A DNA stretch of 36,007 nt from a virus. The stretch lies in UHGV virus genome UHGV-0135626; one strand, written 5' to 3'. How positions within the stretch are numbered: the first letter of the stretch is position 1; each line of letters opens with the position of its first letter. Under the pieces are notes generated by a model, which was not told the origin of the DNA, searched no databases, and saw only the letters and a list, made by a program, of their open reading frames with translations. Shown piece by piece: positions 2,658 through 35,631 of the stretch. The position numbers and the translations under genes were made by a program.

Positions 2658-2680
2658 TATAATAAGTAAGTGATTACTTA
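2658..2680 (+). promoter_or_regulatory. Candidate promoter/operator: consensus -10 hexamer abutting a palindrome
   Basis: Perfect TATAAT at 2658-2663, then TAAGTAA-gtga-TTACTTA (7-bp arms, 2663-2680) ending at the first codon of the ParB-like operon. The -35 element is weak. Confidence 0.35.
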
Positions 2681-3379
2681 GTGTATTGTAGCAATAAAAT
2701 GGATGTAAAAATCACGATTTTGCAGGTTGATGTTGCCAACCTTCGCCCGAATACCTGGAACACCAATTCGGTTGGTGCGCAGAATTTTGAAAAACTGAAA
2801 GGTTCTATCGAAAAATTGGGCTTTTTTAAGCCAATTTTGGCTCGTGAACTTGAAGATGGATTTTTTGAAATCCTCGGCGGCGAACATCGCTGGCGTGCCG
2901 CTATTGAGCAAGGAATTTCAACGGTTCCAGTGCTTTCTGTGGGCAAAATTAGCGATGTCGTAGCTAAACAGATGTCACTGGTGGACAACGAGCGATACGG
3001 TGAAGACGACCAAATCGCATTGCAACGCTTCATTGAAGAAATTCAGTCAGAACTTGACTATCAACTGTCTGAAATCGCCCCGTATGACGACGAAATCTCG
3101 ATGGTTTTAGCAAAAGAGGCGGCAATCGACCTTGAAGCACTGGAGGCGTTGTCTCGTGGTAGTGATGAGCCTGTCGATACCGACAAACGAGAGAAAACCG
3201 AACGTGTGGGTGCGGAACATCAGACCATGCGCTTCAAAGTAACTTTCGATGCGTCAGATCGTGTTGCAGAAACCATAAAAAACATCATCAAAGAGCAGGC
3301 TATTAACACCGGTAATGAAATGGAGAACGCTGGTGAGGCTCTGGTGTGGCTGGTCGACTACTACAAGGAGCGTATGTAA
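2681..3379 (+). CDS. ParB/Srx-like nuclease-domain protein, copy 1
   Basis: ORF begins with GTG at 2681 (alternative ATG at 2699); neither has a strong SD. ParB N-terminal box FEILGGEHRWRAAIEQG; acidic C-terminal half. Stop overlaps the next start (TAATG at 3377-3381). Confidence 0.75.
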   Translation: MYCSNKMDVKITILQVDVANLRPNTWNTNSVGAQNFEKLKGSIEKLGFFKPILARELEDGFFEILGGEHRWRAAIEQGISTVPVLSVGKISDVVAKQMSLVDNERYGEDDQIALQRFIEEIQSELDYQLSEIAPYDDEISMVLAKEAAIDLEALEALSRGSDEPVDTDKREKTERVGAEHQTMRFKVTFDASDRVAETIKNIIKEQAINTGNEMENAGEALVWLVDYYKERM

Positions 3380-4047
3380 TGACCAAAAAGTTTGAAATCG
3401 TATATCGCGACCCGGCAGATCTTATTCCCTATGAGATGAATGCCAAAAAGCATGATGAACAGCAGATCAGAGATCTGGCCGCAGCCATTAAAAAGCGCGG
3501 ATTTGACCAGCCAATTACGGTCGATAAGAACGACGTAATTATTACTGGTCATGGCCGCCGTGAGGCTGCAATTTTTGCTGGACTTGAGCGCGTACCGGTT
3601 ATTGTTCGCGATGATCTCAGTGATGACGAGGTTCGTGCGAAGCGCCTTGAAGATAACCGACTTGCCAGCATTGATTACGATGCAATTAAGCTACAGAAAG
3701 AGCTTGAGTCGCTTGTTCTGGACGATATCGAGGTTTTCGGCTTTGAAGAGCGTGAGTTGAATGTTCTCGTTGGCAGTATGACAGAAGAAATGGACACCGA
3801 CTCGCTAGTTATCGATCTTGGCGAAGAAACTAAACGACAGAAGGATGAACACACCGAGATCAGTCGTGAAGTTGCAGCGGAAGAAGTACGTGTTGTCGAC
3901 GTATTGGGCTTTAAAACGCTTCCTGCTGGCTCTGCCATTGTTGTTGGTGATTTGCTTGCCCACATGGAAGAAATGACGGGAGAAAGCGGGGTAGACGCAT
4001 TTGTGGCATATGCGGAGAAGATCTCTTCCGGGGAGATGGCTGCATGA
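3379..4047 (+). CDS. ParB/Srx-like nuclease-domain protein, copy 2
   Basis: Start taken at ATG 3379 (MTKKFEIV), overlapping the upstream stop; the track ORF begins at 3346. ParB box IITGHGRREAAIFAG; acidic C-terminal region. Confidence 0.75.
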   Translation: MTKKFEIVYRDPADLIPYEMNAKKHDEQQIRDLAAAIKKRGFDQPITVDKNDVIITGHGRREAAIFAGLERVPVIVRDDLSDDEVRAKRLEDNRLASIDYDAIKLQKELESLVLDDIEVFGFEERELNVLVGSMTEEMDTDSLVIDLGEETKRQKDEHTEISREVAAEEVRVVDVLGFKTLPAGSAIVVGDLLAHMEEMTGESGVDAFVAYAEKISSGEMAA

Positions 4048-4709
4048 GCAAATACATCATCAACGTATCGTTTCAGACACGCGTAAATAAAACCACGCGC
4101 ACGTTGGAAATCGCTGAGTCGTTCGGGCTTGGTCTGGACGAAAAAGAGTGGACGCTTTACGACAATCTGGAGCTGGAAGTGAAGCAGGGCGATGTGGTGT
4201 ACATCACCGGCCAATCCGGTTCCGGCAAATCCGTTGTGCTGCGCGAGTTGCAACGACAGATGAAGGATGAAGGGTTGTCTGTAGCCTCCATCGATGATTT
4301 TACCTTCGATAATGAGGTTAACGTCATCGATCAGTTGGGCAAAACGACCAGTGATGCGCTTGGGTTGTTATCTATGGCTGGTCTGAACGATGCATATCTG
4401 TTTGTTCGCAAGCCTTCTGAAATGTCAGACGGTCAGAAATATCGTCTCAAGATTGCCAAACTGATTGAGTCAGGCGCTAAAGTGTGGGCTGCTGACGAGT
4501 TCGGTGCTGTTTTAGACCGTGTAACCGCTCAGGTTGTGGCATCTAACCTCCAGCGTGTCGCTCGAAAGGTTGGTGCGACGGTAATGGTGGCGACGACTCA
4601 CGAAGACCTGAAGAACGCGCTGCGCCCGGATATGCAGATCACCAAGCACTACAAAGAACGCGTGAAGGTGGAATATCACAATGGCAGTCATGATGAGGTC
4701 CATTCATGA
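4044..4709 (+). CDS. Stand-alone ABC-type ATPase, nucleotide-binding domain only
   Basis: 221 aa. Walker A GQSGSGKS, signature-like SDGQKYRL, Walker B VWAADEF, H-loop TTHED. SD GGGGAG 8 nt upstream; ATGA overlap with both neighbours. No membrane domain or partner. Confidence 0.8.
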   Translation: MSKYIINVSFQTRVNKTTRTLEIAESFGLGLDEKEWTLYDNLELEVKQGDVVYITGQSGSGKSVVLRELQRQMKDEGLSVASIDDFTFDNEVNVIDQLGKTTSDALGLLSMAGLNDAYLFVRKPSEMSDGQKYRLKIAKLIESGAKVWAADEFGAVLDRVTAQVVASNLQRVARKVGATVMVATTHEDLKNALRPDMQITKHYKERVKVEYHNGSHDEVHS

Positions 4710-5605: not shown

Positions 5606-5872
5606 ATGACGTTAACCGATAAACAAAAGGACATCATCAAAACGCTCAATCTCGGTTATGAGCGAGGTCATCTACTTGACCTGGACGAATTGCTTGAAGT
5701 TTTGCCGTACAAGACAACCAAGCAAAGTATCCAGTTCTCAATTCGCGCTCTGATAAAAAAGGGGCTGGTGGAGAAAGGGCATACGCGCCAACGCAGTGAC
5801 AATCGCTATCACCGCCGAACTCTTGGGTTAACCACTTTAGGTCGAGCCAAAGCGAAGTTACTGGTGATGTAA
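5606..5872 (+). CDS. Small basic protein, putative winged-helix DNA-binding regulator
   Basis: 88 aa, SD AAGGA 5 nt upstream, 9 nt after the GNAT gene stop. Basic C-terminus (RQRSDNRYHRRTLG); the helix-turn-helix assignment is pattern-level only. Confidence 0.5.
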   Translation: MTLTDKQKDIIKTLNLGYERGHLLDLDELLEVLPYKTTKQSIQFSIRALIKKGLVEKGHTRQRSDNRYHRRTLGLTTLGRAKAKLLVM

Positions 5873-5896
5873 TCGGTCTGGGAGCTTATTTAAAGA

Positions 5897-5951
5897 CCTG
5901 CTTCTGTATATATAAATAATAAGAAACTTATTAAATATATACGGAAGCAGG
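5897..5951. repeat. Long imperfect inverted repeat with an AT-rich interior
   Basis: CCTGCTTC (5897-5904) pairs with GAAGCAGG (5944-5951); the interior also pairs imperfectly (tgtatatat...atatatacg). Confidence 0.5.
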
Positions 5952-5990
5952 CTTAATAAGACATGCCCAGACCTAATTAAACACCCCAGA

Positions 5991-6701: not shown

Positions 6702-7957
6702 TGGCAATCCCGTCCTCGCTCAGTCTTGTGCAACTGCATTCTGGACAGATGAAAGTCTTCCAGTCTCCGCATCGATTTAAAGTTGTTTGTGCTGGTCGAC
6801 GCTGGGGAAAATCCCGGTTGTCGATCTCCACTATTATTCGTGCGGCGGCAAAGGAAAAAAAGCAAAGGGTCTGGTATGTCGCTCCTACTTACCAGATGGC
6901 TCGCCAGATTTTGTGGGACGATCTACAGGAAGTTCTGCCTCGTAAGTGGGTTAGGAAAAAGAACGACACCACGATGACAATCGTGTTGAAGAACGGTTCG
7001 GAGATCGCCCTCAAAGGTGCTGATAAGCCTGACACTCTGCGCGGCGTAGCGTTGCATTTTGTAGTGCTTGATGAATTTCAGGATATGAAGGCTGACACCT
7101 GGTACAAGGTGTTACGACCTACTCTTTCATCGACACGCGGCGGTGCACTGATCATTGGTACGCCAAAAGGCTTCTCGGAATTTCACAAACTGTGGACTAT
7201 AGGCCAGAACGTAGAGCTGCAAAGAAAGGGACAGTGGAAGAGCTGGCAGTTTGTAACTGCCGATTCTCCGTTTGTACCTACGGCGGAAATTGAAGCTGCT
7301 AAGAACGATATGGACCCGAAATCGTTCGCTCAGGAGTACCTGGCGAGCTTTGAGAACATGTCCGGGCGCGTTTACTACCCGTTCGATCGTAACGTGCATG
7401 TAAAACCGCTTCAGTTCAACCCTCGGTTGCCTATATGGGTAGGGCAGGACTTCAACATTGACCCGATGTCTTCAGTAATTTTGCAACCTCAGCCAAATGG
7501 TGAGCTATGGGCAATTGATGAATTGGTGCTCTTTTCCTCTAACACGGCAGAGGTTTGTGATGAGCTTGAGAGACGCTTCTGGCGCTGGAAATCACAGATA
7601 ACGGTATTTCCAGATCCGGCAGGTGCTTATCGCCAACATGCTCGCGGGGAGTCTGACGTCGACATATTCAAAGAGAAGGGATTCTTACGTGTCGATTATT
7701 CGAAAAAGCACCCGCCAATTGCGGATCGTGTTAATGCTGTTAACCGAATGCTGATGACCGCATCTGGAGATATCCGGCTGTATATCGATCCGAAGTGCAA
7801 GCATTTGATTGATTCACTGGAAAAAGTCATCTACAAGCCTGGAACACGAGATATGGATAAGACAGGTGGCATTGAGCATAGTGCAGACGCATTGGGCTAT
7901 CCAGTACATCGTAGGTATCCAGTCAAAAACCGTGTTATTCTTGGTGGTTCTCGATAG
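6701..7957 (+). CDS. terL: Terminase large subunit (ATPase and nuclease)
   Basis: 418 aa. Walker A-like VVCAGRRWGKS, Walker B HFVVLDEFQDM, acidic residues in the C-terminal half; sits directly upstream of the portal gene. Confidence 0.8.
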   Translation: MAIPSSLSLVQLHSGQMKVFQSPHRFKVVCAGRRWGKSRLSISTIIRAAAKEKKQRVWYVAPTYQMARQILWDDLQEVLPRKWVRKKNDTTMTIVLKNGSEIALKGADKPDTLRGVALHFVVLDEFQDMKADTWYKVLRPTLSSTRGGALIIGTPKGFSEFHKLWTIGQNVELQRKGQWKSWQFVTADSPFVPTAEIEAAKNDMDPKSFAQEYLASFENMSGRVYYPFDRNVHVKPLQFNPRLPIWVGQDFNIDPMSSVILQPQPNGELWAIDELVLFSSNTAEVCDELERRFWRWKSQITVFPDPAGAYRQHARGESDVDIFKEKGFLRVDYSKKHPPIADRVNAVNRMLMTASGDIRLYIDPKCKHLIDSLEKVIYKPGTRDMDKTGGIEHSADALGYPVHRRYPVKNRVILGGSR

Positions 7958-7983
7958 GTAAGTAATTATCTAAGGTTATTCAA

Positions 7984-9558
7984 ATGGAATTGAACGACAA
8001 ACAAATTAAGGATCTGGTGGCGCGACGCCACCCGGAATACGAAAAGAAAAAAGAACATTGGGACTTCCTCGCCAGCACTTACGCTGGCGGGCGTGGTTGG
8101 TTTACAGACAATATCTTTCGTTACTTTAAAGAGGGAGATCAGGAGTTTAAGGAGCGAGTTGAACGTGCTTATCGCTTCAACCACACTCGTGAGGTGGTAA
8201 ACCTCATCAACAAATATCTCTTTAAAGAAGACATTCATAGAAATATCGAAGAGGCACCAGAGCAGATCCGCAATTTCTGGAAACGTGCGACTCGCCAGAA
8301 TGCCTCTATTGACTCATTTATGGCCGCTATTGATTTGCAGTCGTCTATTTACGGTCGCATATGGGTTGTTGTCGATAGCACGATGAGTGGTGATGTTGAG
8401 TCAGTAGCTGACGAGAAAAAGAAAGATGCTCGCGCCTACGCCTACTGGATTTCACCTCAGCAAATGCTGGATGTGGCATGGGACGACGACGGGAATATGT
8501 TGTGGGCGTTAATTGTGGAAGTCGCTCGTGATGACGCAGATCCTTTTACTTCTACAGGTCAGGAATACCAACGTTATCGTCTGTGGACACAAAACGAGTG
8601 GTATCTGTTCCGTGAGGAAGTGAAGAAGGGCGCTGGTGGAGCAGGTCGCCGTCAGGCAAAAGTTATTTTAGAGGATAGCGGTGAGCATAATCTCGGCGTA
8701 GTTCCTGTGTTTCCTGTTGATTGTATTGGAGAAAGTGAATCACCGTATTTCAGCCCATCGTTGATCGATGATATCGCTTATCTTGATCGTGCGGTTGCAA
8801 ACTATCTGTCAAACCTTGATGCCATTATTCAGGATCAGACATTTAGCCAGTTGGCTATACCGGTACAGTCGCTTTTACCTGGTGATGAAAACCACACTAA
8901 AGTGCTTGAAATGGGCACAAAGCGAGTCTTCACCTACGATTCTGAAGGTGGAAACCAGCCGTTTTATCTGTCACCAGACCCGAAACAAGCTCAGATGATC
9001 ATCACTACGATTAAGACGGTGATTAACGAAATCTACCATTCAGTTGGTGTAGCTGGTGAGCGAACGAAGCAGGACAACGCACAGGGAATCGATAATTCAT
9101 CTGGTGCCGCAAAAATGTATGACTTCCAGCGTGTAAATAGCTTGCTTGTCACAAAAGCAGAGCGTCTGGAAAGGGCTGAACGCCAAATCATGCTACTGGT
9201 TGCGAAATGGATGGGGGTAGATCTGGACGAAGACCACTCTTTAATTGCGTATCCAGAAAGTTTCGATATTCGTGGCCTTACTGATGAATTTTCTGTTGCC
9301 GAGAAACTGTCATTACTTCAGGCACCGGACTCTGTACGTCGTCACCAGATGGAAATGCTTATTGAGAAGATTTTCCCGAACATTACTGAGGCGATGAAAA
9401 AGGAATTTGATAAAGATCTCTTGAATTTTCCTCCAAAAAATGATCTAAATACCCTTGAAAATAAGTCAGTACTTACTTATGATCGTGGTGCGGCCCAAGA
9501 AAGCGGGCAAGATCAACCCCGAGGGAATGGGGACTCATCTACTCAAGAGAACGAGTGA
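7984..9558 (+). CDS. Portal protein
   Basis: 524-aa ORF directly after terL, with an acidic and Gly-rich C-terminus; assigned by size and conserved gene order. Confidence 0.75.
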   Translation: MELNDKQIKDLVARRHPEYEKKKEHWDFLASTYAGGRGWFTDNIFRYFKEGDQEFKERVERAYRFNHTREVVNLINKYLFKEDIHRNIEEAPEQIRNFWKRATRQNASIDSFMAAIDLQSSIYGRIWVVVDSTMSGDVESVADEKKKDARAYAYWISPQQMLDVAWDDDGNMLWALIVEVARDDADPFTSTGQEYQRYRLWTQNEWYLFREEVKKGAGGAGRRQAKVILEDSGEHNLGVVPVFPVDCIGESESPYFSPSLIDDIAYLDRAVANYLSNLDAIIQDQTFSQLAIPVQSLLPGDENHTKVLEMGTKRVFTYDSEGGNQPFYLSPDPKQAQMIITTIKTVINEIYHSVGVAGERTKQDNAQGIDNSSGAAKMYDFQRVNSLLVTKAERLERAERQIMLLVAKWMGVDLDEDHSLIAYPESFDIRGLTDEFSVAEKLSLLQAPDSVRRHQMEMLIEKIFPNITEAMKKEFDKDLLNFPPKNDLNTLENKSVLTYDRGAAQESGQDQPRGNGDSSTQENE

Positions 9559-11368: not shown

Positions 11369-11400
11369 TCAGTGCAGTAGATAAGTAATTATCTATGTTA

Positions 11401-11430
11401 AAGGGTGGGCTATACGCCCACCCTTTTTGT
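11401..11430 (+). terminator. Rho-independent terminator after the capsid gene
   Basis: AAGGGTGGGC-tatac-GCCCACCCTT followed by TTTTGT: 10-bp GC-rich stem plus T-tract. Confidence 0.8.
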
Positions 11431-14947: not shown

Positions 14948-14956
14948 CTCAATTGG

Positions 14957-14970
14957 TAAGTATATACTTA
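14957..14970. promoter_or_regulatory. Perfect 14-bp palindrome TAAGTATATACTTA upstream of the major tail gene
   Basis: Exact self-complementary 14-mer in the 74-bp gap before the major tail protein start; same TAAGTA half-site as the other intergenic palindromes. Confidence 0.4.
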
Positions 14971-15021
14971 CTATTAGCACAATGAATGCGTAGAATTAAC
15001 GGAAAAAGGAGTTTTCCATCA

Positions 15022-21436: not shown

Positions 21437-21518
21437 GCATCTGGATAAGTAAGTACTAATTTACTATCATTGTGGCGCTGACAGGATGTTAGCGCCTACT
21501 TATTTCAAGGATGAAACA

Positions 21519-27766: not shown

Positions 27767-27859
27767 TTGTGGAAAAAAATAATCATTTCTGTAAAAATAG
27801 GTAGGTACTAACTTAATGGTGGGCATGGAACGCCCACCATATCTAGGAGCAAAGGATAA

Positions 27860-30486: not shown

Positions 30487-31527
30487 ATGGTTACAAAAAC
30501 AGTAATTCCTGATGACATCAAAACGCTAAAATCGGATGTTAGTAAATTAAAAACCGATCAAGGAAACTACGCAACAAAATCTTATGTAGACAATAAAACA
30601 ACATGGAATGGTTATTGCAATTTAATCTATGATCAAAAAACATTGCCAACAACTGGAACTATATTCAGCGGTAAGCTGCATTTGTCAAATAAGACTGGTG
30701 AAACGGAAAACGCTTATAGTGACATATATACCAGAAAAAATATTGATGGTACTAAAGATACAATGACGAGGATCGTCACACATAACGGGACAAAAGGTAT
30801 CTTTTGGGACTTTAGTGATCTTAACGGAGGAACTTTAATTTTTCCAGGCAGTGGTGGTTATCTTAAGATGGGGAACTGCCTCATGTCGTATGGTGTGCGG
30901 GGAAGTAACGCGCTTATTAAGTTTGATTACACCGACACATTACAGATCAAATATGCCAATCATGGGTCAACCATGACATTAAACACACAGGGAACCGCTT
31001 ATGCTGGTGTTACTGCTCAATTGTGGGGCAACTCCAGTCGTCCAGTTGTTTATGAAATTAGGGATGATGGCGGGCTTTTTTTGTTTTATGCACAAAGGAA
31101 CCCAGATAAAACCTATCAGCTTGAGATAAACGGGCCATGCAAGGCTACATCATTCGACCAGGTGTCGGACAGAGATCTTAAAGAAAACATTCAGGTTATT
31201 GATAATGCCACTGAGCGCATCAGATTAATGAATGGGTATACTTACCGTCTCAAGTCTAATGGTATGCCTTATGCTGGCGTTATTGCGCAAGAGGCACTTA
31301 ATGCAATCCCTGAATCAGTTGGTAGCACAATAAAGTACAAGAGCGGGGACAATGGGTCTGATGGAGAAGAGGGAGAAAGATACTATACCGTCGATTACTC
31401 AGGCGTAACGGGTTTGCTTGTTCAGGTAGCCAGAGAGTCAGACGACAGGATAACAGCACTGGAAGAAGAAAACGCAGAATTAAGACAAAGATTATCTGCA
31501 ATTGAGGCGGCGCTTGCGTCTAAATAA
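30487..31527 (+). CDS. Tail fibre protein with C-terminal intramolecular chaperone (peptidase S74-type) domain
   Basis: 346 aa, SD GGAG 7 nt upstream. Residues 227-234 SDRDLKEN match the autoproteolysis site of endosialidase/T5-type fibre chaperone domains; a terminal helical segment (EEENAELRQRLSAIEAALASK) follows. Confidence 0.75.
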   Translation: MVTKTVIPDDIKTLKSDVSKLKTDQGNYATKSYVDNKTTWNGYCNLIYDQKTLPTTGTIFSGKLHLSNKTGETENAYSDIYTRKNIDGTKDTMTRIVTHNGTKGIFWDFSDLNGGTLIFPGSGGYLKMGNCLMSYGVRGSNALIKFDYTDTLQIKYANHGSTMTLNTQGTAYAGVTAQLWGNSSRPVVYEIRDDGGLFLFYAQRNPDKTYQLEINGPCKATSFDQVSDRDLKENIQVIDNATERIRLMNGYTYRLKSNGMPYAGVIAQEALNAIPESVGSTIKYKSGDNGSDGEEGERYYTVDYSGVTGLLVQVARESDDRITALEEENAELRQRLSAIEAALASK

Positions 31528-31533
31528 TATCAA

Positions 31534-31556
31534 GGGGCCGAGCGCCCCGTTTTATT
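31534..31556 (+). terminator. Rho-independent terminator after the fibre gene
   Basis: GGGGC-cgagc-GCCCC followed by GTTTTATT. Confidence 0.65.
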
Positions 31557-31569
31557 GGGTAGGATGAAA

Positions 31570-31854
31570 ATGGATATAACACCTTTCCTTCATGCGCTTT
31601 GTGCTGTGGCTGCGCAGCTACTGATTGGTCTTTTTACCGGGAACTGGGTTTACGGGGCGATAGCCGGTTGTACGTTCTTCATTGCGCGTGAACACACCCA
31701 GGCAGAATATCGCTGGATTGAAATGTTCGGGCATGGCAAGCGTATGAATATGCCGTGGTGGGGCGGTTTTGATCCGCGCGCTTGGGATGTAGCAAGCCTG
31801 ATGGATTTTGCGATTCCACTTTTAGCGTGCACATTATTATATATTTTTATTTAA
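31570..31854 (+). CDS. Small membrane protein with two predicted transmembrane helices (holin, moron or exclusion protein)
   Basis: About 94 aa from ATG 31570 (SD AGGA 5 nt upstream); hydrophobic segments AVAAQLLIGLFTGNWVYGAIAGCTFFIA and ASLMDFAIPLLACTLLYIFI. Lies between a terminator and an AT-rich promoter region. Confidence 0.45.
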   Translation: MDITPFLHALCAVAAQLLIGLFTGNWVYGAIAGCTFFIAREHTQAEYRWIEMFGHGKRMNMPWWGGFDPRAWDVASLMDFAIPLLACTLLYIFI

Positions 31855-31946: not shown

Positions 31947-31976
31947 TTTACAGATAGGTAAGTGCATACCTATATA
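31947..31976 (+). promoter_or_regulatory. Candidate sigma70-type promoter with an embedded operator palindrome
   Basis: -35-like TTTACA (31947-31952), 18-bp spacer, -10-like TATATA (31971-31976). The spacer holds the perfect inverted repeat ATAGGTA-agtgca-TACCTAT (31954-31973). Confidence 0.45.
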
Positions 31977-32035
31977 AAAAAGATAAAATGTGATATAAAT
32001 CCGCCATCCCGATTTGACTTTTCATGGAGGAAAAT

Positions 32036-32359
32036 ATGTCGAACGAGATGGCGGGCGTAACAACAGAGCAAGTTGAGCGCATTGCCGCGATCGTTGCTCG
32101 GGAGGTTGTCGGCAAATTAGGTAAAGAGCTACGTGAAGAAATTGGCCAGGAGGTCAACGATCAGCTGAAAACCTACTTTGGTGATATGACCCCGGCGCAA
32201 CATAGTATTCAACACTCCAACCTGGACAAACTCCTTAACCGGTTAGATTCCATCTCCAGTGGGTTCTTTGGCGGCATTGTTTCTAAAATAACGTCGTTCA
32301 TTATTACCGCACTGCTTTTGGGGTTAGCCGCGTATGGCGTGAAAAATGGACTGCAATAA
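32036..32359 (+). CDS. Small protein with one C-terminal transmembrane helix (holin or antiholin candidate)
   Basis: Start at ATG 32036 with SD GGAGG 5 nt upstream (track ORF starts 32024). C-terminal hydrophobic segment ITSFIITALLLGLAAYGV; directly upstream of the putative endolysin. Confidence 0.45.
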   Translation: MSNEMAGVTTEQVERIAAIVAREVVGKLGKELREEIGQEVNDQLKTYFGDMTPAQHSIQHSNLDKLLNRLDSISSGFFGGIVSKITSFIITALLLGLAAYGVKNGLQ

Positions 32360-32372
32360 CAGGAGATCAAGG

Positions 32373-33065
32373 ATGAAGACTCCGAGAGGCATTCGTAACA
32401 ATAACCCCGGTAATCTTGATAAAGGATCGCCGTGGCAAGGTCTGGTTGCTAATCCAGACGAACCCCGCTTTTGCACGTTTAAAGACCCTGTTTGGGGGAT
32501 TCGTGCGCTGGCGGTGACTCTAATTACCTACCACGACAAACGTCGCGCAAAAGACGGCTCAAGTATCGATACCATTCGTGAAGTTATTGAACGCTGGGCA
32601 CCGCCGAACGAAAATAACACTGACGCCTATATTAATGAGGTGTCCAAAGCAGTTGGTGTAACCGCAGACATGATTATCGATCTGCATGATTACGACATCC
32701 TTCGACCTTTAGTTGAGGCAATCATTCGCCACGAGAATGGCCGAGGCCCGCTAAAAACGCTGAACACCTGGTATGCGGCAGAAGTTATTGAGGAAGGTCT
32801 GCGTCGAGCTGGCGTCGTTAAGCCGGTGAAAACGGTGAAGGCTGTTCCTGTAACGAAAGAAACCGCAGGCGCAACTGTTACAGCAGGTATTGGTCTGGCG
32901 CAGCTTGCCGATGTTATGCCGCAGATTTCCGCTGCTATGGATAAAGCACAAGGTCATATCTCTAGCGGGGATACAGTACGCATCATCTTCGGTATTGCCA
33001 CTATTGTTGTGGCAGGATTCATTGCCTGGTCGCAGGTAAGAAAACACCAGAAAGGGATGGTCTAA
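32373..33065 (+). CDS. Putative endolysin / cell-wall hydrolase with C-terminal transmembrane anchor
   Basis: Start at ATG 32373 (MKTPRGIRNNNPGNL) with SD AGGAG 7 nt upstream. Function inferred from position directly before Rz/Rz1; C-terminal hydrophobic segment IIFGIATIVVAGFIAW. No catalytic motif confidently recognised. Confidence 0.4.
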   Translation: MKTPRGIRNNNPGNLDKGSPWQGLVANPDEPRFCTFKDPVWGIRALAVTLITYHDKRRAKDGSSIDTIREVIERWAPPNENNTDAYINEVSKAVGVTADMIIDLHDYDILRPLVEAIIRHENGRGPLKTLNTWYAAEVIEEGLRRAGVVKPVKTVKAVPVTKETAGATVTAGIGLAQLADVMPQISAAMDKAQGHISSGDTVRIIFGIATIVVAGFIAWSQVRKHQKGMV

Positions 33066-33066
33066 T

Positions 33067-33318
33067 ATGCTAGGCAGCCTGATGACAAAGCTAAAAGTTG
33101 CTTTGATTATGCTGGCTGCCGTTCTTTTCGTTCTTGTCGGCGCTTACACGATGGGCGGAAATGCGGCGCGACGAGCAATGGAAGAGAAGGCAAAACAGGA
33201 AGACAGAAAACGACTTCAAAACACAGTGAAAGTGGTGAATGAGACGAGCAGTAAAATACGTCAGAAAGATGCTTCTGCCGTTCATCGTGAGTTGTATGAT
33301 AAGTGGGTGCGTCATTAA
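33067..33318 (+). CDS. Rz: Inner-membrane spanin (Rz-like)
   Basis: 83 aa with N-terminal transmembrane segment (LKVALIMLAAVLFVLVGAY) and a charged helical periplasmic part; a lipoprotein gene is embedded in the +1 frame. Confidence 0.65.
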   Translation: MLGSLMTKLKVALIMLAAVLFVLVGAYTMGGNAARRAMEEKAKQEDRKRLQNTVKVVNETSSKIRQKDASAVHRELYDKWVRH

Positions 33319-33454
33319 ACCACAAACAGCCAGCGTGTTGTTCTGCGATGGGGCTGAGCCTATCTATATCAGCAATAATGATGTAATGACTGAAGAAACC
33401 GAACGCCAAATCCTTTTTCACAATACGATGGGAGAGAGGGTTTGTGGTTGGTGA
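33239..33454 (+). CDS. Rz1: Outer-membrane lipoprotein spanin (Rz1-like), overlapping Rz in another frame
   Basis: 71-aa ORF starting inside the Rz gene and running past its stop. Lipoprotein signal with lipobox ISGC (MRRAVKYVRKMLLPFIVSCMISG|C); short mature peptide. Confidence 0.6.
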   Translation: MRRAVKYVRKMLLPFIVSCMISGCVIKPQTASVLFCDGAEPIYISNNDVMTEETERQILFHNTMGERVCGW

Positions 33455-33486: not shown

Positions 33487-34008
33487 TTATTCTTCGAACA
33501 ATTTTTCGATAGATTTTGTAGGATAGAACAAAGAACGCTCGTTGTTACCAACCAGCTGGATAAAGCCTAAACTTTTATAAAACGCCTTGGCTTTGTCATT
33601 TAACGCCTCAACGAAAAGTCCATGAATGCCTACAGCAAGAGATGCATTGTACACAACGCGCATTGCATGTGTTACAAGCATTGAGCCAAATCCTTGACCT
33701 TGAAGGGACTTGTCCAAAGCCAGCCTACCCAAAGTAACACTTGGAACATTCCGATAAGGAACCTTCTTTTGTTTGCTTCTTGAAGGTAAGGACTCCTTTT
33801 CAAAACAACTACCTGACAAAGTGTAATATCCTAACACTTTTGGCCTTTCTTCTTGAGTGCAAAGCACATAAGCACGAAGAATTTTTCCCTCATGCTGCCT
33901 TTTTAAGTGGTTGGCTAAAAAGGCGTTTAGTGACTCTTCGCCGCAATCAAAACCGTTTAGATCATAATCTTTCTCTCCAGAGAAAATCTCTATCGTTGTA
34001 TTGCTCAC
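33487..34008 (-). CDS. GNAT-family acetyltransferase toxin of a type II toxin-antitoxin pair (TacT/AtaT/KacT-like)
   Basis: 173 aa; GNAT motifs (QGQGFGSMLVTHAM acyl-CoA loop, AKAFYKSLGF). Immediately downstream of, and co-oriented with, a DUF1778-type antitoxin gene. Confidence 0.8.
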   Translation of the reverse strand: MSNTTIEIFSGEKDYDLNGFDCGEESLNAFLANHLKRQHEGKILRAYVLCTQEERPKVLGYYTLSGSCFEKESLPSRSKQKKVPYRNVPSVTLGRLALDKSLQGQGFGSMLVTHAMRVVYNASLAVGIHGLFVEALNDKAKAFYKSLGFIQLVGNNERSLFYPTKSIEKLFEE

Positions 34009-34015
34009 GAGTAAA

Positions 34016-34285
34016 CTACTCCATGCTTTTCAGACGATCAGCAGCTCGTTTCAGCTTGTCGTTCGGTGCCGGAGGATTGCTTATAGCGTCCATAACCAGA
34101 TTCCAGGATTCTTCATTCAGAACTAGTCTACGGTGTTGCTCTATAACTTTCACGGCACGTTCAGATGCACTGCTAACCATAAACTGAGTAATGCTCTGGT
34201 TAGACATTGCGGCAGCTTCCTCGATGATGCTTTTATCGTCATCGGTTAATCTCAAATCGATGCGCTGCTTTTTTAGTGCTGACAT
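34016..34285 (-). CDS. DUF1778-type (RHH) antitoxin, TacA/AtaR-like
   Basis: Start at ATG 34285 (MSALKKQRIDLRLTDDDKSIIEEAA), preceded by a perfect SD AGGAGG with 5-nt spacer, giving 89 aa. The track ORF extends to a TTG at 34324. Confidence 0.8.
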   Translation of the reverse strand: MSALKKQRIDLRLTDDDKSIIEEAAAMSNQSITQFMVSSASERAVKVIEQHRRLVLNEESWNLVMDAISNPPAPNDKLKRAADRLKSME

Positions 34286-34324
34286 GTATTCCTCCTGATG
34301 GCCGTGATGTAGGAAGGCCATCAA

Positions 34325-34603: not shown

Positions 34604-35272
34604 ATGACCAAGATCTTTGTGGTTGGCGGCACAAAGGGCGGGCCTGGCAAATCCACCGTTGCCCAGCAAATTGCCGTTTGCCTGAAAGTCAAAAAGAAGA
34701 AGAAGGTTTATATTACCGATATAGATATTCAGCGCACGACAACGAGCTGGTGTGAAGACCGTCGACAGAACGAAGACCTTGAGCTGATTCCTTTTGCATA
34801 CGTTCAGGATGACATCATTAAGCACCTAAAATCGCTTCAGGGTAGAGCTGAGTTTGTAGTGGTAGATGCTGGTGGCTTCGACTCCGAAATTCAGCGACAA
34901 GCGATGCTGATGGCTGACGTTATCATTATCCCGCTGCGTCCTAAGCGTCGTGATTTGAAATCTTTACGTGACATCGATCCTATTATCGACAATGTTCGCA
35001 ATGTAAACGATAAAGTGAAGGTCCGCGCGGTCATGAACCAGTGCCCGGCTTTGCCATCACAAGTGTCTCGCATTCTGGCGGCTAAAGAGATTGTTGAGAC
35101 GTTTGGAATCGAGTCTGCGCCAGTCAATCTATATAACCGCAACGTCTATGATGATGCGGAAGAGTCTGGTCGTTCTATCTTTGAAATGACCGGTAGCGAG
35201 CGCGACAAAAAGGCGGAAGCCGAGTTTGAAGAATTTGTAGATTATCTGTTGAGTCTGGAGGAAGAAGAATAA
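34604..35272 (+). CDS. parA: ParA-family partition ATPase (small type Ib form)
   Basis: 222 aa with deviant Walker A GGTKGGPGKST at the N-terminus and no N-terminal HTH extension. SD AAAGGGAA; TAATG overlap with the next gene. Confidence 0.85.
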   Translation: MTKIFVVGGTKGGPGKSTVAQQIAVCLKVKKKKKVYITDIDIQRTTTSWCEDRRQNEDLELIPFAYVQDDIIKHLKSLQGRAEFVVVDAGGFDSEIQRQAMLMADVIIIPLRPKRRDLKSLRDIDPIIDNVRNVNDKVKVRAVMNQCPALPSQVSRILAAKEIVETFGIESAPVNLYNRNVYDDAEESGRSIFEMTGSERDKKAEAEFEEFVDYLLSLEEEE

Positions 35273-35631
35273 TGTCCATGAAAATGGGTGACCTAGCAAA
35301 GCGCAAAGAGCCTGATGCACCGGCTAAGAACACAACTCCTTTGCGCCAACCAGTCAGACCACAAGGACGCCCGACTCGTGGCAAAGAGAAAATTAAAAGC
35401 CGCACTATGTCACTGGAAGACGAATACTTCGAGCTTCTGGAAATGATGAAGTTTATCCCTCGTTTCGAGAAGTTCACCCGCTCTGATGTGATTCGTGCTG
35501 CTATTTTCCATCTGGCAGAGAAGTCACCGCAGGAAATCGAGGACATCGTAAAGCTGAACGAGGCGATCACAGCTGCCGATGTCACGATGCGTACCGATGA
35601 AATTAAACGCGAGTTGATGAAGAAAGGTTAA
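35272..35631 (+). CDS. Small RHH-type centromere-binding partition protein (ParG-like)
   Basis: 119 aa, translationally coupled to parA. Basic, probably disordered N-terminus and a C-terminal ribbon-helix-helix-like region. Confidence 0.65.
   Translation: MSMKMGDLAKRKEPDAPAKNTTPLRQPVRPQGRPTRGKEKIKSRTMSLEDEYFELLEMMKFIPRFEKFTRSDVIRAAIFHLAEKSPQEIEDIVKLNEAITAADVTMRTDEIKRELMKKG

Follow-up and report, generated by a model that had tools for sequence, protein, structure and literature searches.

Judging from sequence comparisons, the palindrome that lies ahead of the lysis genes in the DNA analyzed here is one of about 20–30 copies per element of a conserved 20-bp site. The stretch under study (36,007 nucleotides of the virus genome UHGV-0135626; henceforth the window) represents an SSU5-like phage-plasmid, with 95–98% identity to E. 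coli elements and ~81% identity to Salmonella phage SSU5. The reading of this site family that we favor, and that we regard as moderately probable, is that the copies are operators of a repressor, and that the binder is a 128-aa XRE-type HTH protein (the CYRAN_45 family). This protein would then be the master repressor of the plasmid state, recognizing the 20-bp site as a symmetric dimer. In the lysogenic plasmid state the promoter of almost every lytic unit would be overlapped or adjoined by a site occupied by the repressor, keeping the polymerase off, and at promoterless junctions, such as that between the terL and portal genes, the bound protein would act as a roadblock to elongation. Upon loss of the repressor all units would be released together, lysis included. 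As the same site precedes ~20 transcription units, lysis appears to belong to one global regulon, which contradicts the proposal of an earlier note on this DNA that lysis is separately regulated.

Distribution, symmetry and promoter context of the 20-bp site

The inverted repeat ATAGGTA-N6-TACCTAT (N6 = AGTGCA), which the earlier note had singled out upstream of the lysis genes, is indeed perfect. A single perfect repeat of this 7/6/7 geometry would by itself be unremarkable; the window contains 10 such repeats as against 1.9 in shuffled sequences. With up to 3 mismatches permitted, the repeat at the lysis genes is matched 7 times in the window versus 0.77 times expected, a count reached in 0 of 100 shuffles, and a PWM adds an eighth copy (Table 1). 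A symmetric PWM applied to CP100028.1, a complete and closely related element of 109 kb, recovers 20 positions scoring at least 18 bits as against 0.0 in shuffles; the above figures for the window and for this relative rule out a chance origin of the site family. The consensus is composed of the half-sites ATAGGTAAGT and ACTTACCTAT, with flanks that extend weakly to ATG...CAT. All copies in the window lie in gaps or at the ends of ORFs, ahead of plus-strand lytic genes, and the scan of the window found no copy in the toxin-antitoxin and ParA segment (33.4–36.0 kb). The plasmid-maintenance genes of this palindrome-free segment are a GNAT (KacT-like) toxin with a DUF1778 antitoxin (33487–34324, minus strand) and a ParA-type partition module (34604–35631, plus strand).

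Table 1. Coordinates of the copies of the 20-bp site and of the features of the lysis region in the window
Feature	Position	Strand	Remarks
Sister copy	2662..2681	.	divergent region between helicase gene (-) and ParB_N gene (+)
Sister copy	7954..7973	.	fills the 26-nt terL-portal junction; stoperator-like position; same place in Acinetobacter
Sister copy	9461..9480	.	separates the hexamers of TTGAAA-17-TATGAT as their spacer, portal ORF 3' end; 11.5 bits; the same in three lineages
Sister copy	11377..11396	.	after the major capsid gene, then terminator hairpin 11403-11423 + T5; same layout in Acinetobacter
Sister copy	14952..14971	.	overlaps TTGAAT-18-TATACT, before the major-tail (Ig-domain) gene
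Sister copy	21445..21464	.	before the tail-tip L gene, then a covarying hairpin
Sister copy	27797..27816	.	before the tail-fibre gene
Intrinsic-terminator-like hairpin + T-run	31534..31548	+	between the tail-fibre accessory gene and the lysis promoter region
TTTACA, -35 of the earlier note	31947..31952	+	lineage-specific; upstream flank unrelated in all other lineages
Putative 20-bp palindromic operator, lysis copy (ATAGGTAAGTGCATACCTAT)	31954..31973	.	PWM 25.4 bits
TATATA, -10 of the earlier note	31971..31976	+	overlaps the final three bases of the palindrome
TGaTATAAA, extended -10	31991..31999	+	conserved in 7/8 lineages; best candidate -10 of the lysis promoter
Predicted transcription start	32006..32006	+	placed from the -10 position only
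Holin gene	32036..32359	+	start at the second ATG, GGAGG ahead; annotated Holin in Cyrano and SSU5
Endolysin gene	32373..33065	+	identity to annotated Cyrano/SSU5 genes
Rz/Rz1 spanin genes	33067..33454	+	identity to annotated Cyrano/SSU5 genes

In CP100028.1 the sites stand ahead of nrdA, thyA, tail gene L and the genes for the SbcD-like protein, the dam-type methylase, SSB, a ParB_N protein, the portal, the major tail, the tail fibre and the holin. They likewise precede the gene that follows the one for the portal, the Ig-domain gene downstream of that for the major capsid, and genes of the replication region adjoining those for helicase, primase and ligase. A score of 18 bits or more is reached by 21 sites in SSU5 and by 18 in Klebsiella pJN2-26; these occupy orthologous intergenic positions, such that orthologous copies are present in E. 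coli, Salmonella and Klebsiella elements; the Klebsiella consensus is the perfect palindrome ATAGGTAAGTACTTACCTAT. A syntenic Acinetobacter phage-plasmid carries about 30 copies of a lineage-specific variant with half-sites ATCAGTCAGT and ACTGACTGAT, the former also rendered as ATCAGTCA(G/C)T. These copies lie in analogous places: the holin gene is preceded by two, the terminase-portal junction holds one, and another, itself trailed by a terminator, comes after the capsid gene.

Given the intergenic location of the copies, often just 5' of ribosome-binding sites, one might suppose that the palindrome works as an RNA hairpin in processing, stability or termination or as a translational operator, and the folding of the lysis copy at -5.7 kcal/mol and the GNRA-like loops of some copies would be in keeping with this. 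Across 51 distinct sites, however, mirrored positions are Watson-Crick in 375 cells as against 378.9 expected under independent halves, and at positions 4/17 the counts are AT 11, GC 13, GT 11 and AC 13, A-C thus being as common as G-T. The mean MFE is just -3.0 kcal/mol, with a value of 0 for some copies, and an Rfam scan of the window gave no match. The sites themselves are symmetric, without bias towards either strand. As the half-sites vary independently, with no base-pair covariation, they are best read as DNA sites for a symmetric protein dimer, and the want of covariation together with the weak folds leads us to reject the RNA reading, which we consider extremely improbable.

The sites also show a directional association with promoter-like sequences, which were called by simple PWM predictions plus conservation. 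For each of the three enterobacterial genomes scored, sigma70-like sequences overlapping the sites reach about 6.7 bits in the sense and 4.7–4.9 bits in the antisense direction (p = 0.009, 0.001 and 0.003, these genomes not being independent samples), with random positions scoring 3.4 bits; the corresponding difference in Acinetobacter is not significant (p = 0.15). Near-consensus promoters in which the palindrome forms the spacer are kept in register across lineages, namely TTGATA-17-TAACAT (nrdA) and TTGAAA-17-TATGAT (3' end of the portal ORF). The register is likewise conserved in TTGCCA-17-TGnAAAAAT at dam, where the predicted start falls inside the palindrome, and in TTGAAT-18-TATACT and TTTACA-17-TAGTAT, where the -10 falls inside it. 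On the whole, the site centre may lie anywhere from about +1.5 to -42.5, always inside the predicted polymerase footprint, and the terL-portal junction has no promoter-like sequence in any lineage examined. This multiplicity of registers fits steric repression better than activation. No oriented hexamer was found at a fixed offset from the palindrome: the sole enriched hexamer is TAnnnT at motif position 18, and it is alike on both strands (0.68 and 0.61). Being symmetric, TAnnnT is taken to be part of an extended palindrome, and on the same ground the idea of a fixed-offset -10 or -35 beside the palindrome was dropped.

These observations bear directly on the possibility that the palindrome is an element for a lytic-cycle activator, of the P1 Lpa or class II type, which replaces a missing -35 and turns on all lytic promoters including that of lysis. 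A good -35 is lacking at most sites, and the -10-like TAnnnT hexamers abut the palindrome, as such an element would have it. Yet the symmetry of TAnnnT assigns it to the palindrome itself, several of the overlapped promoters are predicted by the PWM to be strong enough without activation, and the register runs from overlap with the start site to overlap with the -35, a range that no single activator geometry allows. Sites are also found before early replication and nucleotide-metabolism genes. Taken with the further points raised below, we judge an activator element to be unlikely, albeit well short of negligible.

Terminator-like hairpins stand 5–30 nt after several sites, an arrangement that would suit an antitermination or activation element as well as an operator of the favored HTH repressor. 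Those lying directly after copies in the window are at 11403–11428, about 21474–21497 and 27818–27838, and one also follows the nrdA site in relatives. Their pairing is kept by compensatory changes between lineages (e.g. GGCGCT/AGCGCC versus CAACGT/ACGTTG), predicted starts fall within some of the stems, and a CAGGATG loop motif recurs. A separate near-perfect hairpin of 56 nt (5897–5952; RNA MFE -24.7 kcal/mol) is situated between the ORF at 5606–5872 and the terS-like gene and is flanked by GTCTGG at 5876 and CCAGAC at 5967. It is present in three copies in CP100028.1 and also occurs in SSU5 and Klebsiella, where at least one copy (15285) has CCAGAC repeats after it; pac, centromere or origin are guesses as to its role.

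The lysis cassette and its promoter region

The earlier note had interpreted TTTACA and TATATA, separated by 18 nt, as a sigma70 promoter whose spacer is filled by the palindrome. Both hexamers are present in the sequence at that spacing, but as a promoter they are no better than chance: the pair scores 2.8 bits on the sigma70 PWM, below the mean best score of 3.4 bits at random genome positions, and is not among the sites listed by a consensus promoter scan of the window, a scan in which promoter-like sites are fewer than in shuffled sequence (9 versus 16.2). As a -10, TATATA has no T at position 6; its orthologues read TACAAA, TACAAT, TATAAA, TACCAT, TACTAA and TATAAT, and, going by the motif, it is partly the end of the extended palindrome. 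TTTACA was sought in the lysis region of 7 other lineages and was absent from each; as the upstream flank is unrelated in every lineage, this hexamer appears to be a local accident. These hexamers are thus probably not the functional ones, and may represent a weak second promoter in this lineage only.

Comparison of the lysis region across eight lineages points to a different promoter. An element TGnTATAAA, situated 20 nt further downstream than the -10 of the earlier note, has an invariant TG and TATAAA in seven lineages, the middle base being A, C or G. It is separated from the palindrome by a fixed gap of 17 nt (18 nt in pHCM2), the sequence of which is free to vary, and a counterpart in pFF979_1, TGgTATAAC, lies 16 nt from the palindrome. 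To judge by the alignment, this pattern of conservation is the signature of an extended -10. The conservation of the -10 at 31994–31999 makes it the likely lysis promoter, from which transcription would begin near 32006, so that the palindrome would span -52 to -33. The palindromic candidate operator would overlap the predicted RNA polymerase footprint with either assignment, lying in the spacer of the pair proposed earlier or at -52 to -33 of the extended -10 promoter. Under the repressor model the site would accordingly cover approximately -52 to -33 of a promoter with a TGaTATAAA core and, in this lineage, would also fill the spacer of the weak TTTACA-18-TATATA; a palindrome filling a promoter spacer is a geometry seen at several sister sites as well. 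Of the earlier proposal that a repressor occludes the polymerase through the palindrome, the mechanism survives as the best-supported one, a conserved putative operator being present in the promoter region, while the assignment of the promoter does not. The constant spacing at this site, which puts its centre near -42.5 relative to the conserved extended -10, is nevertheless the classic position of a class II activator; it speaks for an activator element and against the HTH repressor.

SSU5, Klebsiella pJN2-26, S. Typhi pHCM2, Enterobacter, Cronobacter and a second E. coli lineage all retain the lysis palindrome upstream of the holin gene; it is degenerate only in Y. pestis pMT1, whose cassette is disrupted. 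A narrower model, that of the earlier note, would have TTTACA-18-TATATA act as a stand-alone promoter with a private operator that places lysis under its own control. The hexamers and the palindrome do occur in the proposed geometry, and the terminator-like hairpin upstream implies that the lysis cassette probably needs a promoter of its own. However, an operator common to ~20 other units is hardly private, and the absence of TTTACA elsewhere, a score below the random mean and the failure of the scan to detect the promoter all weigh against this model, which is highly improbable.

With respect to the cassette itself, a Pfam search with the holin gave no hit. The holin ORF has two in-frame ATGs (32024 and 32036), four codons apart (M-E-E-N-M), of which only the second has a good ribosome-binding site. 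Upstream of the cassette, the segment 31400–31811, which spans the tail-fibre accessory gene together with the greater part of a 99-aa membrane ORF (31555–31854), is 97–99% identical to the lambdoid E. coli phages PhiR47_1, HannyBb and Tritos. The region 31400–31854 hence has the form of a mosaic joint, with SSU5-like plasmid homology resuming downstream, at the left edge of the palindrome (31952–31955). In a BLAST search involving 763 SSU5-like plasmids, homology begins at 31952–31955 for the majority of those sampled hits that extend as far as the palindrome.

Candidate binding proteins and their implications

The gene for the 128-aa HTH protein lies outside the window, where it adjoins the integrase gene, and is annotated as CYRAN_45, a putative repressor. 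CYRAN_45 is expressed 10-fold over background in an LF82 lysogen (PMC9928086). In E. coli, Klebsiella, pHCM2 and pMT1 the start codon of the HTH gene has a variant of the site, TCTGGTAAGTGCTTAC(C/T)GAT, 28–31 nt upstream of it; in the same divergent region Acinetobacter and pFF979_1 possess several operator-like copies, those of Acinetobacter being extra, degenerate ones. The gene is found in 865 plasmids and has the same genus distribution as the SSU5-like holin region. Among the candidate regulators, its product alone has a counterpart in the Acinetobacter relative. The recognition helix reads KN(A/P)N(N/I)LSL in every lineage whose motif is of the E. coli type, at overall identities of 56–66%, and KRPNVLSM in Acinetobacter, a correlation of helix and motif that rests on one motif change. 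A PDB sequence search with the HTH protein gave no hit. It is from this combination of expression, co-occurrence and site placement that we infer the identity of the binder and the direction of its effect. Five other regulators, namely the FljA-like Flag1_repress protein, a HicB-like protein, a Cra-like protein, the 71-aa CYRAN_37 and SSU5 Ant, were set aside as binders because none of them is detectable in the Acinetobacter relative, an element whose sites are laid out in the same way.

The K. pneumoniae element pFF979_1 has two operator-like sites 31 bp apart (41385–41435) just upstream of a shorter HTH homologue of 101 aa. A third (41927–41946) is embedded in a longer perfect palindrome and precedes the first divergent lytic gene by 9 nt, and this layout resembles an OR-type switch region.

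SSU5, which has been described as virulent (PMC5427195), lacks the HTH gene and yet keeps all the sites. This would be expected if the gene was deleted recently, and the repressor model would then offer an explanation for the virulence of SSU5; the retention of all sites in a virulent phage would equally fit a binder that SSU5 has kept, and is a further point in favor of an activator. Another such point is the core of the site, AAGT/ACTT, which is like the P1 late-promoter box AAGTNACTT placed 4 nt from the -10, and this resemblance to the Lpa box AAGT-N-ACTT counts to that extent against the HTH repressor. Against an activator of this kind, tblastn detected no Lpa homologue in four genomes (E values of at least 0.2). 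A scan of six proteins against PHROG 1704 matched P1 Lpa itself only, more distant homology being possible. An Lpa-like ORF at 144–743 (35% over 52 aa) was dropped as a weak hit, the ORF being absent from SSU5 and Klebsiella.

A further alternative is that one of two conserved ParB_N-domain proteins (2699–3379 and 3346–4047) binds the sites in the manner of KorB of RK2. Silencing through dispersed palindromes is an established mechanism of the KorB type, RK2 having 12 OB palindromes. Both ParB_N genes occur in every lineage, SSU5 and Acinetobacter included, and a copy of the palindrome lies 17 nt upstream of the first of them. On the other hand, the ParB_N domain alone was detected in these proteins, with no DNA-binding domain identified; the genes are in lytic orientation behind an operator copy, the partition system of the element is a separate ParA module, and the proteins are not known to be expressed in the lysogen. 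These features render binding by a ParB_N protein very unlikely. The two genes stand in tandem, together with one for an ABC-type ATPase (2699–4709), upstream of the terminase genes, an arrangement found in all lineages including Acinetobacter.

A composite reading, to which we attach a slim chance, is that the one palindrome serves two proteins, the lysogenic XRE-type repressor and an Lpa-like lytic activator that uses the AAGT/ACTT core, with the two competing at about 25 promoters. If so, this competition together with roadblock sites inside operons would set the decision between plasmid and lysis genome-wide, and the system would constitute a symmetric Gram-negative counterpart of the mycobacteriophage stoperator system.

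Returning to the single-repressor model, release of lysis would be coupled to the loss of a repressor shared with the other site-bearing lytic units, and would require no late switch of its own. Phage-plasmids of the SSU5 type are frequent in Enterobacterales, where they include pHCM2 of S. Typhi and pMT1 of Y. pestis as well as hundreds of plasmids from Klebsiella, E. coli and Enterobacter. In the searchable literature we found no description of an immunity circuit of the SSU5 type or of the palindrome motif; a 2026 preprint on heteroresistance was set aside as it concerns a different phage-plasmid family. The operator consensus and the candidate repressor together supply a testable map of the whole lytic regulon, predict immunity groups that separate the enterobacterial motif from the Acinetobacter motif, and might provide handles with which to induce or cure these elements.

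Comparison with known dispersed-operator systems

The late promoters of P1, for which the boxes were taken from the annotated record (LPmat, LPpro, LPlyz, LPdar, LPs and LPsit), share with the present sites a palindromic AAGT/ACTT core just upstream of a -10-like hexamer and the occurrence of multiple copies before morphogenesis and lysis genes. The P1 Lpa box, however, consists of AAGT-N-ACTT, 4 nt and the -10, whereas here the half-sites AAGTACTT abut without a central base inside a palindrome of 20–26 bp. The 9-bp box 4 nt from the -10 has no equivalent in the present sites, which are 3 nt from the symmetric TAnnnT, nor are the latter confined to late operons, as they also precede nrdA, thyA, dam, SSB and replication genes. 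The lack of an Lpa homologue, the sites at early genes and a geometry that is neither fixed nor oriented argue against membership of the Lpa family. The likeness of AAGT-N-ACTT to AAGT/ACTT could be due to convergence or to a distant relationship of the binding proteins.

As with CI/Cro of the lambdoid phages, the site is a palindrome suited to a small HTH dimer, and extra weaker copies occur between the repressor gene and the divergent lytic operon. In lambdoid phages, though, there are 6 operators in two clusters and the late and lysis genes are controlled via Q antitermination, as opposed to the 20–30 dispersed operators of the SSU5 type, one of which is at the lysis promoter. The OB sites of KorB (IncP RK2) are similar in that one palindrome, repeated identically at least a dozen times in or close to the promoters of a mobile element, defines a global regulon, but KorB is a ParB-family protein, while the binder favored here is of the XRE-type HTH class.

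The repressor gp71 of mycobacteriophage L5 and Cluster A acts at about 24–30 'stoperators'. The proposed system is comparable in having one small repressor and tens of sites throughout the genome, in short operon gaps and at promoters, that would silence the lysogen. The L5 sites differ in being 13 bp in length, asymmetric and orientation-dependent, whereas those described here are 20 bp long and symmetric, the sequences being unrelated; and a roadblock in the present system, for instance at the terL-portal junction, is only a presumed function. P1 C1, as annotated in NC_005856, is likewise the immunity repressor of a phage-plasmid, with many scattered operators overlapping sigma70 promoters. 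Its operators are 17 bp long, asymmetric and restricted to early functions, the late genes needing Lpa, in contrast to the single symmetric site that precedes both early and late units here. The SSU5-type elements display the general properties of dispersed operators and stoperators: there are many intergenic copies before lytic genes, at variable registers with respect to PWM-predicted promoters or at promoterless junctions, and a candidate repressor gene expressed in the lysogen has a site in its own control region. The asymmetry and orientation dependence of the L5 and P1 C1 sites were not found among them. By analogy, the closest parallels in mode of action would be P1 C1 with its dispersed operators and L5 gp71 with its stoperators, sites that in both cases are asymmetric and unrelated in sequence to the palindrome of the SSU5-like phage-plasmids.
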